64,000 nucleotides of DNA from Escherichia coli (lineage in GTDB: Bacteria; Pseudomonadota; Gammaproteobacteria; Enterobacterales; Enterobacteriaceae): assembly GCF_003334305.1 (NCBI RefSeq), contig NZ_QOWS01000019.1. One strand, written 5' to 3'. Each line of letters begins with the position of its first letter. Within the stretch, counting starts at the first letter, position 1. Positions 59,306 to 64,000 of the stretch are shown piece by piece. The position numbers are program-made.

Positions 59306-62300
59306 TGACTGCCGGTCATTTTACATAATGACAGAAAGAACAACTTATCCCGCAGGCCTGTTGTGATCCGCCCTCCCACGGACAAAGCATCCGCGATGTC
59401 AGTGGGGCCGCTGCTCATAGCTGCTGATAGTGCAGCTTTCGGCTGTTTTTGTACCAAATACGGAGAATTGCAAGATAGCGGGCAATAGCCACTTTTTTAA
59501 CAGGATGTAAAGATGCTAGTTACAATATAAAGAAATCTATCAAGCCGCTAGTCAAGCGGCTTTGGTCGTTACTTGCCGCAGAGTGGACACCCACCTTGCA
59601 TAGGGGCAAAGTTAATTGACTGCGATTTACGGATGCTTTCATTGACGGCAAAGCTCTCCATGCCCTCTTGCAGAGGTACTCTTCGGTTATCCTTATAAAA
59701 ATGACTAAGAACCCGTAGGAACTCCTTTCGATCTTCTTCAGAAGCCTCGAAGTAAGCGTTAAGAATTTTTGCACTACTCATATGTTCTCCTTGTTAAAAT
59801 TTCCCACAACCATCACAAACACATTTTCCCGGTTTCAAAGTTAGGGGAACGACATTACAAATATGGCATTTTTTTTTGAAGTAGAAACAGGACATACGGT
59901 TTGCATAACGAAGTTCTTTATCACTCACACACAAAGTTAAGTCTTCCTGCTCCCTTCGCTCAAATTTTTCCGTCAAATCGTCTATCAAAATTTCCAATTT
60001 GGCTTCGTCAAGCTTACCTATTTTCTTGCGAACACTACCAGCTAGGTTATAAATGGCTGTATTTTCCTTAACGGAAGCCATGCAATCACTATATGAGCGA
60101 TCCCATCCGGAAACCAAAGACCACAGCGAGAACCCCAATTGCATGATACTTGCCACACCGGCAATTGTGATGCAAAGCGGCAGAAATGGAGCTTCAAGTC
60201 CGAATGATAAAACTGCACAACCTATCATCAGTGGAACAAAGACCCCAAGGAAGGTGACAACCTTACGCTTCCAGTCTAAGGATCTCATACGCCTATCAAA
60301 AATTCGAGACGTACCATATGAAATAAATTCTATGTGTGCCACTTCAGCACGAGTTTTCTCTTCATCCATAATCAATAAAACTTGTTATCCGGTGTTTTAA
60401 TCTTTAATAAGACTGACCCTGCTCATATTATTTAGAATCATTTAAAATGTCGATGCCCGACACGAGAGATATCTCGCTCAAAACAGCCTGTCAGCGTAGT
60501 ATCGAAGCGAGTCAGTTTTTTGCTTGAGATGGGCGATTCCATAATATTATCCCGTACTTTTTTCAGATAACCGCCTCCCATTAAGACAGTTGCTTGCATC
60601 AACGCCAGCCCGGCTAAGATGGAGGCACGGCACAGCCCGCACACGACTCGACGTCCACATAACTGAACCCCCACAAGGCCATGCTCCGCATGGCCGGGTA
60701 AAGCGGAGCCGGCGGCGACTTCCTTTGTGCTCTGTCCGGGGACCGGCAGGAAAAAGGCGGGGATTTTCCCCGCCATCGTCATCATTTCCGGATTTTTGCC
60801 AGGGCATCCGCCATGCTGCGGATTTCATCCCGTGCCTCCAAGAAAACTCCCGCAGAATATAGCGGTCAAACAAGCGGCGGGGCGGTTCACCCGGTATACG
60901 CAGCACATCACAGACCAAGCCACTGGCCAAGATATGTTCCACACACTCACTGGCAGGCATTAATGGAATCGTAGTCTCACGCTGATAATCAGATCGACAA
61001 TACAAGTGAGACCGTGGTCCCAGACTGATTAGCAGACCAACAATACGAGTGGGACCGCGGTCCCAGACTGATTATCAGACTAACAATATGAGTGGGACCG
61101 TGGTCCCAGACCGATAATCAGACCAACAATATGAGTGGGACCGTGGTCCCAGACTGATTAGCAGACCGACAATATGAGTGGGACCGTGGTCCCAGACTGA
61201 TTAGCAGACCAACAATACGAGTGGGACCGCGGTCCCAGACTGATTAGCAGACTAACAATATGAGTGGGCCCGTGGTCCCAGACCGATAATCAGACCGACA
61301 ATATGAGTGGGACCGTGGTCCCAGACTGATTATCAGACCGACAATATGAGTGGGACCGTGGTCCCAGACTGATTATCAGACCGACAATACAACTGGGACC
61401 GTGGTCCCAGATATAATATTCAGGCCAGTTAGTTATGTTTTCTAGCCTGTGCTAAAGGAAATTAAGTAAAGACAGATAAATGTAGACTAAAACGTGCCGC
61501 ATCAAAGTGCCGCTTTTTCAAGTTCCTTAAGAATGGCTTCAATTCTCTCTATACACTCAGTTGGAATACGAGATCTATCTAGGTTTAACACCATTTTATC
61601 GCCCTTGTACAACACTGTCGCTCCAGGAGCAAACTGATGTCGTGAGCTTAAGCTAGTTCTTGAGGCAGATGACGTTTTAAGCACAGACGTTAAAAGAGTG
61701 ATGACTTCTTCAGCTTCAAATATCACTCCTGCTTTTTTCTGCTCGTGAAGGTTAGATGCCTGCTGCTTAAGTAATTCTTCTTTATCTGTAAAAGCTCTTT
61801 GAAGTGCATCACCTGACCGGGCAGATAGTTCACCGGGATGAGAAAAAAGAGCAACAACTGATTTAGGCAGTTTAGCTGTGTTGATACAGCGGGTAATAAT
61901 CTTACGTGAAATATTTTCTGCATCAGCCAGCGCAGAAATATTTCCAGCAAATTCATTCTGCAATCGGCTTGCATAACGCTGACCACGTTCATAAGCACTT
62001 GTTGGCCTATAATCGTTACCCAATCTGGACAATGCAGCCATCTGCTCATCATCCAGCTCACCAACCAGAACTCGATAATCACTTTCTGTAAGTGCAGCAG
62101 CTTTACGACGGCGGCTCCCATCGGCAATTTCTATGACCCCAGACACTCTTCGACCGAATGCTGGTGTCTGCTGACCTGTCAGTAGAAAAGAAGGGATAAG
62201 ATCATCCAGGGCGTCTTCGGTAAGCAGTTCCTGGTCACGTTCATTACCTGACCATACCCGAGAGGTCTTCTCAACACTATCTCCCCGGAGCACCTCAAGG

Positions 62301-64000
62301 GTAAATTTCACGTCCCTACCACATACAGGCAAAGTAATAGCATTGCCACGAGCCATAGCTCCTACGCGCGCAATTAACGAATCCACCATCGGTGCAGCTG
62401 GTGCCGATGACGGAGTATCTTCAAGCGGTTGAGTCTTAATCGTATGTTTTGGAATGACAGGCGCACGCTTCATTATCTAATCTCCCAGCGTGGTTTAATC
62501 AAACGATCGAAAATTTCATTGCAGACAGGTTCCCAAATAGAAAGGGCATTTCTCCAGGCACCTGTTGAAGAGCGTTGATCAATAGCCTGTTCAAAAACAG
62601 TTCTCATCCGGATCTGACCTTTACCAACTTCATCCGTTTCACGCACAACATTTTTTAGGACCATGCTTCCCCAGGCGTCCCGAATTTGCTCCTCCATCCA
62701 CGGGGACTGAGAACCATTACTATTACTGTATTTGGTAAGCAAAATACGTACATCAGGCTCGAATCCTTTAAGATCTACGTTTTTGAGCAGATCACGAAGC
62801 ATATCGAAAAACTGCAGAGCGGAAGTGTAGTCGAACAACTCAGCAGGCGTGGGGACAATCAACACATCAGCAGCACATACAACATTAATCGTGCCGATAC
62901 CTAGGTTAGGCGCGCTGTCAATGACAATGACATCATAGTCATGAGCGACGGTTTCAATGGCCAGTCGGAGCATCAGGTGTGGATCGGTGGGCAATTTACC
63001 TTCATCAAATTTGCCCATTAGCTCAGTTTCAATGCGGTGCAGAGCCAAACAGGAAGGAATAATGTCAAGCCCAGGCCAGCAAGTAGGCTTTATTGCATAA
63101 GTGACATCGTCCTTTTCCCCAAGATAGAAGGGAAGGAGAGTATCCTCTGCATGAATATGAAGATCTGGCACCCAGCCGTGATACATCGATGCTGTTCCCT
63201 GGGGGTCGTTACCTTCCACGAGCAGAACACGTAATCCCTTCAGAGCCAGATCCTGAGCAAGATGAACAGAAACAGAGGTTTTGTAAACGCCCCCTTTATG
63301 AGCAGCAACTCCAATCACCGGCGGAAATACGTCTTCAGCACGTCGTAGTCTCGTACCAAACACGTCACGCATATGATTAATTTGTTCAATTGTATAACCA
63401 ACACGTTGCTCAACCCGTCCTCGTATTTCCATATCCGGGTGCGGTAGCCGGCCTGCTTTCTCGGCATCCCTGATAGCCTGAGAAGATACTCCAACTAAAT
63501 CCGCTGCTTCACCTATTCTCCAGCGTCGGGTGATTTTCCTCGCTTCCGGGCTGTCATCATTAAACTGTGCAATGGCGATAGCCTTCGTCATTTCATGACC
63601 AGCGTTTATGCACTGGTTAAGTGTTTCCATGAGTCTCATTCTGAACATCCTTTAATCATTGCTTTGCATATTTTCATTTAATCTTGCATTTTATTGCAAA
63701 GCAACAACAAAATTGCAAAGTAGTCAAAAAACCGCAAAGTTGTTTAAAATGAGAGCAACACATCAAAAAAGGAAACAGGAAGAGCACATACCTCAGTCAA
63801 TAATTATCACTAGTACTCGTAGCCGTCGTGTAACCGAGCGTAGCGAGCTAACTGGCGAGGACGCGCGCTAACTGTTCACACTCAGTATCCCTAGCACCAA
63901 AATAACTATCTGATGGTCAAGGCGGTAATGACTCCAACTTATTGATAGTGTTTTATGTTCAGATAATGCCCGATGACTTTGTCATGCAGCTCCACCGATT

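Follow-up and report, generated by a model that had tools for sequence, protein, structure and literature searches.

A complete F-type sopABC partition locus with an eleven-unit sopC on an IncFII plasmid of Escherichia coli

The stretch of Escherichia coli DNA analyzed here (64,000 nucleotides of contig NZ_QOWS01000019.1, in the following referred to as the window) very probably, at a rough probability of 93%, carries a complete and intact F-type SopABC cassette on a pS88-like ColV/ColIa IncFII + IncFIB conjugative virulence plasmid; the cassette would have lost its neighboring RepFIA module, and its sopC would not be functionally shortened. Genes and elements typical of the pS88-like group, namely cvaB, colicin Ia, the tra region and the junction of sop with IS1, are present, RepFIB being seen in relatives only. 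Positions 1–25000 of the window are 99.9% identical to pECOS88 (pS88, NC_011747). The complete plasmid pGF47-A matches at 100% over positions 39001–64000 and at 97.5–99.8% elsewhere, and other records match positions 1–25000 best. The locus is ordinary; both the 11-unit centromere and the pairing of such a locus with IncFII/IncFIB replicons are already published. Features and coordinates are collected in Table 1.

Table 1. Features of the sop region and of the RepFIIA replicon, in positions of the window.
Feature	Position	Strand	Remarks
sopA	62473..63639	minus	388 aa from annotated start; ORF from first ATG reaches 63648
sopB	61502..62473	minus	ParB-family centromere-binding protein, 323 aa
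sopAB promoter-operator	63662..63739	minus	CTTTGC hexamers
sopC centromere	60950..61422	minus	11 tandem 43-bp units, downstream of sopB
Terminator-like GC hairpin and T run	60756..60774	minus	Consensus scan only; shuffled sequence gives no fewer
Remaining F-homologous sequence upstream of operator	63740..63872	minus	From alignment with F; without incC iterons
IS1 terminal inverted repeat and first bases	63924..64000		Runs off the window; 77 bp seen
RepFIIA replicon	11036..12446	minus	repA2, CopA RNA, tap, repA1; complete
repA1	11036-11905	minus	TIGR03474, 584 bits
tap leader peptide	11886-11960	minus	TIGR03475, 61 bits
CopA antisense RNA	11978-12069	plus	Rfam RF00042, 99.4 bits (gathering score 60)
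repA2/copB	12186-12446	minus	NF010256, 140 bits

SopA belongs to the type Ia ParA ATPases and has a winged HTH at its N-terminus. It matches the NCBIfam equivalog NF010259 over its full length (872 bits, cut-off 725), is identical to F SopA in 387 of 388 amino acids (99.7%), and is annotated as WP_001238646.1 in relatives. SopB scores 636 bits with the equivalog for SopB-type ParB proteins (NCBIfam NF010252, cut-off 274) and shares 311 of 323 amino acids with F SopB (96.3%), K226R being the only difference within residues 151–302. The sopB start codon overlaps the sopA stop codon at 62473, sopB lying directly downstream in the same operon. The operator of F has CTTTGC three times in direct orientation, with 13 bp between copies, and once inverted, 28 bp downstream (PMC8465637). 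The window matches this layout in its hexamers and in its 13/13/28-bp spacing: read in gene sense, the direct copies occupy 63739–63734 (#1), 63720–63715 (#2) and 63701–63696 (#3), with gaps of 13 bp, and the inverted hexamer (#4) follows at 63667–63662 after a 28-bp spacer. A degenerate copy (#2′, GCAAGA, 63687–63682) is found 27 bp from #2. Four CTTTGC hexamers between 63662 and 63739 compare with 0.034 predicted by the window-wide density (Poisson P ~5e-8), and the aligned part of the promoter region is 87.6% identical to that of F. With SopA, SopB downstream of it, a 43-bp centromere and an autoregulatory operator all in place, the locus is a member of the F-type Sop systems (type Ia ParABS). 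An initial sequence-only reading of the window had proposed such an F-type SopA/SopB locus with a four-CTTTGC operator, and both the equivalog scores and the operator geometry confirm it.

Counted in the register and by the convention used for F, sopC of the window comprises 11 units (61422..60950), as compared to 12 in F, and the 473-bp array is 43 bp shorter. The sequence-only reading had set about ten units against the twelve of F. That there are fewer than in F holds; the shortfall, like for like, is one and not two, and an exact twelve is likewise not what we count. The figure of ten versus twelve misleads because it mixes two counting conventions. The twelve of F includes its two degenerate, non-binding end units, while Tandem Repeats Finder reports 10.0 copies for the window (60982–61411, score 664) and 10.7 copies for F. 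A perfect TGGGACC-PuPy-GGTCCCA box is present in 8 of the 11 units (1–3 and 5–9), units 4 (GGGCCCA) and 10 (GGTCTCA) have one arm mismatch each, and the central Pu-Py is found in all 11. The last unit is degenerate, as had been noted before and as is the last unit in F; the first unit is degenerate in F, while in the window its SopB box is perfect. About 175 bp past sopC, outside the F-homologous region, a terminator-like hairpin is seen (Table 1). Position 60749, at which the locus had been taken to begin, lies some 200 bp beyond sopC and coincides with this hairpin.

Comparison with related plasmids, as the sequence-only reading had advised, was carried out, and 11 units are shared by pECOS88, pLAO19 and pGF47-A. 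The sopC arrays of the window, pLAO19 and pGF47-A are the same unit for unit, and that of pECOS88 differs in unit 5 only, by three substitutions in a conversion-like patch. Where the accessions of SopA and SopB are identical, plasmids carry 7, 9, 11 or 13 units. Among the top 30 PLSDB matches, record spans imply 11 units in 14 records, 9 in 9 and 7 in 7; the conversion of BLAST record spans to unit numbers is usable for near-identical matches only, and was confirmed by direct counts on retrieved loci. Across the whole similarity range span-based counts are unusable, since the distal flank differs and most alignments therefore begin within sopC. That all these counts (7, 9, 11, 13) are odd raised the idea of a higher-order period of 86 bp. 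The unit sequences display no strict two-unit periodicity, however, and three or four independent even-sized events are not significant.

The count of 11 units could be an artefact of assembly, in which a 43-bp array was collapsed or expanded. Tandem arrays longer than a read collapse easily, and near-identical plasmids indeed have counts that differ in the sopC array only. We regard this as very unlikely, given that 11 units recur in three independent complete records (identical in pLAO19 and pGF47-A, with the unit 5 variant in pECOS88), that the published count for pECOS88 agrees (PMC3177203), and that an array of this length is spanned by long reads and by many paired short reads.

It is still less likely that sopC is truly truncated with respect to a 12-unit norm, which would make for a weaker centromere and for partition and incompatibility unlike those of F. 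The missing 43 bp and the two internal boxes with one arm mismatch each would fit such a view. On the other hand, the window and F have 10 boxes each with no more than one arm mismatch, and among complete plasmids, relatives with arrays of 7 or 9 units are common. Moreover, no norm exists by which sopC could be called shortened, as the sequence-only reading had done: Pillet et al. (2011; PMC3177203) list 3–17 repeats across 22 plasmids, with pECOS88 entered in their Table 1 at 11 repeats and 8 consensus sites. According to the same study SopB binds only 10 of the 12 F repeats, one repeat is enough for the stability of mini-F, and the number of repeats is unimportant.

The RepFIIA (IncFII) replicon, with repA2/copB, CopA, tap and repA1 all present, is the sole replicon within the window, as had been stated from the sequence alone; neither RepE nor RepFIB RepA yields a significant tblastn match there. 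A second ParA-type ATPase was not found in the window either. Outside the window, where the sequence-only reading had advised looking for a second replicon, complete relatives carry RepFIB. In pGF47-A, repA of RepFIB occupies positions 1–978, about 36 kb past the end of the window; RepFIB is present in pS88 and pCE0032f1 as well. No repE was found in the complete relatives, the search in pCE0032f1 covering positions 1–88,500.

The RepFIA module (ori2-repE-incC) is not found next to sop. Homology with F is confined to positions 63864–60984 of the window and is lost some 225 bp upstream of sopA. When the regions upstream of sopA are aligned, the stretch of F with the incC iterons (TGAGGG..TGTCACA, 19 bp in F) has no counterpart in the window. 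What adjoins the locus is IS1 and not a sop-associated replicon: a string which we take to be the end of IS1 matches exactly from 63924, and pECOS88, pLAO19, pGF47-A, pCE0032f1, pESBL3227-IncF and pXH993 all have an annotated IS1A transposase at this spot. That RepFIA is still present just past the window, and the mosaic hence an effect of the window cut, is about as improbable as a truncated centromere: the window does stop 77 bp into IS1, and the close relative pCE0032f1 is typed IncFIA by PLSDB, but the incC iterons, located between repE and sopA in F, are already missing inside the window, IS1 is followed by varying cargo (dqlB, a second IS1, iroN or iutA) and not by repE in all six relatives examined, and RepE is found neither in complete pGF47-A (tblastn) nor in positions 1–88,500 of pCE0032f1.

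An intact cassette that has lost its neighboring RepFIA may be pictured as follows. Based on the near-identity to F, sopABC of the window is expected to function in partition. From work on F, SopB dimers would bind to the 16-bp inverted repeats that the 43-bp sopC units carry and then spread, forming a partition complex, and nucleoid-bound SopA-ATP would position the plasmid copies. The sopAB promoter would be repressed by SopA itself, with the help of SopB, through SopA dimers bound to inverted repeats of the hexamer. Partition acts in cis on the whole molecule, and would therefore serve a plasmid replicated by RepFIIA or RepFIB as well as one replicated by RepFIA. The junction suggests that ori2-repE-incC of RepFIA was removed by a rearrangement, after which IS1 came to lie about 285 bp upstream of sopA; this sop-IS1 junction is common to the whole lineage, and no intermediate of RepFIA loss was found. 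The 11-unit sopC is very probably one state of a rapidly varying array, in which slippage, or else unequal recombination and gene conversion between units, would be at work.

A further element at the junction deserves mention. Positions 63827–63861 hold 35 bp of a GC-rich element of about 53 bp, two inverted copies of which bracket ori2-repE-incC in F; in relatives, a weaker copy lies about 460 bp upstream of the repA gene of RepFIB. The resemblance of the window to F ends at the outer edge of this element. We consider it unlikely, if conceivable, that the element serves as a site of recombination or as a module boundary through which replicon cassettes are swapped next to sop in F-family plasmids; if it did, the loss of RepFIA would not be explained by IS1 alone.

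A sopABC locus without RepFIA is normal. Of 5,426 complete E. coli genomes, 2,488 carry sopAB, in 2,493 records, and only 1,436 have the repE-incC-sopA junction of F; about 42% of the genomes with sopAB lack this junction. In the same set, sopAB at least 99% identical to that of the window is found in 610 records. The description as a mosaic is not noteworthy, as RepFIIA together with RepFIB and sopABC is the standard backbone of ColV, ColBM and ColIa plasmids. The literature describes repFIIA, repFIB and a complete sopABC for pAPEC-1 and pAPEC-O1-ColBM, and pS88 likewise has RepFIIA and RepFIB. The length of sopC is a fast-varying character of no known functional weight. The value of these observations lies mainly in correct annotation; in addition, the number of sopC units could be used for fine-scale typing within lineages of ColV plasmids, which would be a convenience rather than new biology.

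Compared with known systems, the replicon resembles those of the R100/R1 type, with the same repA2/copB, CopA, tap and repA1 in canonical order. R1 and R100 are partitioned by parMRC/stbAB, adjoining the replicon; unlike in these plasmids, partition of the RepFIIA plasmid studied here seems to depend on sopABC, at a distance from the replicon. F itself combines an FII-family replicon (typed IncFIC) with RepFIA and RepFIB. The sopABC locus of F (NC_002483, 49566–52519) has the same gene order, operator, 43-bp unit, 16-bp box and degenerate last unit, at about 92% nucleotide identity; in contrast to F, the window is without an adjacent ori2-repE-incC, has IS1 in that place, and is unrelated in sequence downstream of sopC. 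The likeness to pECOS88 is closer than that to F: identity over the 3.1-kb sop locus is 99.9%, the IS1 junction, the 11 units and the 8 consensus boxes are shared, and the backbone of RepFIIA and RepFIB is common to the ColV-ColBM group of pECOS88, pAPEC-1 and pAPEC-O1-ColBM.

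SopA and SopB of the window match the respective NCBIfam equivalogs (SopA, 872 bits against a cut-off of 725; SopB-type ParB, 636 against 274) and are identical to the proteins of plasmid F (NC_002483) at 387 of 388 and 311 of 323 amino acids, K226R being the sole difference within SopB residues 151–302. Four CTTTGC hexamers fall within 78 bp (63662–63739), where 0.034 are expected from the window-wide density (Poisson P ~5e-8). Their layout is that described for the F promoter, in which inverted hexamer repeats are the proposed binding sites of three SopA dimers (PMC8465637). 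At the sequence level, every component of the F system is demonstrably intact and in the F geometry.

Features of the partition locus, the replicon and the F-like backbone in the window
Feature	Position	Strand	Remark
repA1	11036-11905		TIGR03474, 584 bits
tap	11886-11960		TIGR03475
CopA RNA	11978-12069	+	Rfam RF00042, 99.4 bits
repA2/copB	12186-12446		NF010256
AS-pc02	13056-13238		Rfam
AS-traI	17211-17287		Rfam
AS-traG	25849-25934		Rfam
FinP with traJ 5' UTR	44399-44510		Rfam
sok	48480-48652		Rfam
AS-pc01	55868-55969		Rfam
sopB	61502-62473	-	ORF
sopA	62473-63639	-	annotated start; ORF from first ATG to 63648
inverted hexamer #4	63667-63662		gene sense; 28-bp spacer before
degenerate hexamer #2' GCAAGA	63687-63682		gene sense; 27 bp from #2
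CTTTGC #3	63701-63696		gene sense; 13 bp from #2
CTTTGC #2	63720-63715		gene sense; 13 bp from #1
CTTTGC #1	63739-63734		gene sense

The sequence-only reading had set about ten 43-bp sopC units against twelve in F. Tandem Repeats Finder reports the array at 60982–61411 (period 43 bp, 10.0 copies, 90% matches, score 664), and the same run gives just 10.7 copies for F. The canonical twelve units of F include a degenerate first and a degenerate last unit. Hence, "ten versus twelve" mixes two conventions. With both arrays set in one 43-bp register, and units counted if at least 50% identical to the consensus, F has 12 units and the window 11 (61422..60950), with 9 and 8 perfect TGGGACC-PuPy-GGTCCCA boxes, respectively, and 10 boxes each at no more than one arm mismatch. 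The first unit holds a perfect box in the window but three arm mismatches in F, whereas the last is degenerate in the same way in both. The observation of a shorter array is therefore real, but the count was off by one unit and the gap is one unit, not two. Our count agrees with the entry for the virulence plasmid pECOS88 (pS88, NC_011747) in Table 1 of the survey of 22 sopC-type centromeres by Pillet et al. (2011), where 11 repeats (43 bp each) with 8 consensus sites are listed, a single terminal repeat being canonical and one mutation falling on a position critical for binding (PMC3177203); the sop loci of pECOS88 and the window are 99.9% identical. According to the same survey, such centromeres have 3 to 17 repeats per plasmid, a number that its authors regard as unimportant, SopB binds specifically only 10 of the 12 repeats in F, and one repeat is enough for mini-F stability, as shown by earlier work cited there (PMC3177203).

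Among plasmids sharing the same SopA and SopB accessions (WP_001238646.1, WP_000817028.1), the array has 7 units in pESBL3227-IncF, 9 in pCE0032f1 (NZ_CP118998.1), 11 in pECOS88, pLAO19 and pGF47-A, and 13 in pXH993. Record spans of the 30 best PLSDB matches imply 11 units in 14, 9 in nine and 7 in seven, and an 86-bp shortfall is essentially the sole difference from the window in 10 of the 12 best 25-kb matches from the complete E. coli genome set. STEC1113, a plasmid with the F allele, has 11 units versus 12 in F. Unit 5 of the window (61208–61250) differs from pECOS88 (20509–20551) by three substitutions (central GC versus AC; CTCG..TTGGT versus CTCA..TCGGT). These make it match unit 9 in its box centre and right flank, and they look like gene conversion from another sopC unit. 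Variation among close relatives, together with this patch, marks the array as a fast-evolving tandem repeat, of which 11 units is simply one state. All counts seen for this allele are odd (steps of 2 or 4 units), and units 4–5 resemble units 8–9; with so few events in so small a sample, no rule can be drawn from this.

RepFIIA as the sole replicon of the window was borne out: it is complete at 11036–12446, and tblastn with F RepE and the RepFIB initiator gave no significant match in the window. Six further sites match, at Rfam gathering level, elements typical of an F-like backbone. Beyond the window, the relatives do have a second replicon. The closest complete one, pGF47-A (100% identity across window 39001–64000), carries RepFIIA plus a RepFIB initiator (1–978, ~36 kb past the window end), and RepFIB is also present on pS88 and pCE0032f1. 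There is a slight possibility that RepFIA lies elsewhere on the source molecule, outside the 64-kb window; no RepE is found anywhere on complete pGF47-A. PLSDB/MOB-suite types pCE0032f1 as IncFIA; repE was not detected in its positions 1–88,500, the remaining sequence being window-like, and the typing may stem from sop-adjacent sequence rather than a RepFIA replicon. A yacAB toxin-antitoxin region stands beside RepFIIA (9732–10234), and a second, partly degraded copy on pGF47-A (105319–105820; 97.8% over 503 bp) suggests a duplication within the colicin region.

By analogy with F ParABS, SopB would bind the 16-bp boxes and then spread, nucleoid-bound SopA-ATP would position the plasmid copies, and SopA together with SopB would autoregulate the operon. 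The locus would act in cis regardless of the origin from which the molecule is replicated, so that its combination with RepFIIA or RepFIB would not be a functional obstacle. A second ParA-type ATPase was not found within the window, and the ParB-like protein (667 aa) encoded in the leading region is without a partner ATPase.

Homology to F (window 63864 to 60984, F 49566–52441; 92.2% identity) ends ~225 bp upstream of sopA, and the incC iterons, which precede that point in F, are missing from the window. An IS1 end begins at 63924. At the matching position, six of six relatives inspected have an annotated IS1 transposase, with differing cargo beyond it (dqlB genes, further IS1 copies, iroN or iutA); hence, the sop-IS1 junction is ancestral to the lineage and its far side has been reshuffled. 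A ~53-bp GC-rich element at the start of the F homology (35 bp of it in the window, 63827–63861) has two inverted copies flanking ori2-repE-incC in F (49567–49619 and 48029–48081); pGF47-A (130426–130478) and pCE0032f1 each have a weaker copy, ~460 bp upstream of RepFIB repA. The element may represent a module boundary or recombination site. On the minus strand, ~175 bp beyond sopC, where the sequence is not related to F, a strong GC hairpin (60756–60774; 8 pairs, 7 G-C) followed by TTTTT overlaps a 115-aa ORF (60438–60785) annotated as hypothetical in relatives and lacking an NCBIfam match.

The sequence-only interpretation is thus partly right, and both its points are already documented; the mosaic is not unusual. 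Complete F-type sopABC accompanies repFIIA(-FIC) and repFIB on pAPEC-1, and the sop locus of pAPEC-O1-ColBM is highly similar (PMC2626276); F itself types as IncFIA, IncFIB and IncFIC. We found sopAB in 2,488 of 5,426 complete E. coli genomes and the F-type repE-incC-sopA junction in 1,436, so that ~42% of sop carriers are without it at megablast sensitivity. Records with sopAB at least 99% identical to the window number 610, and Klebsiella plasmids at 80–90% identity account for 2,282 of the best 5,000 PLSDB sop matches.
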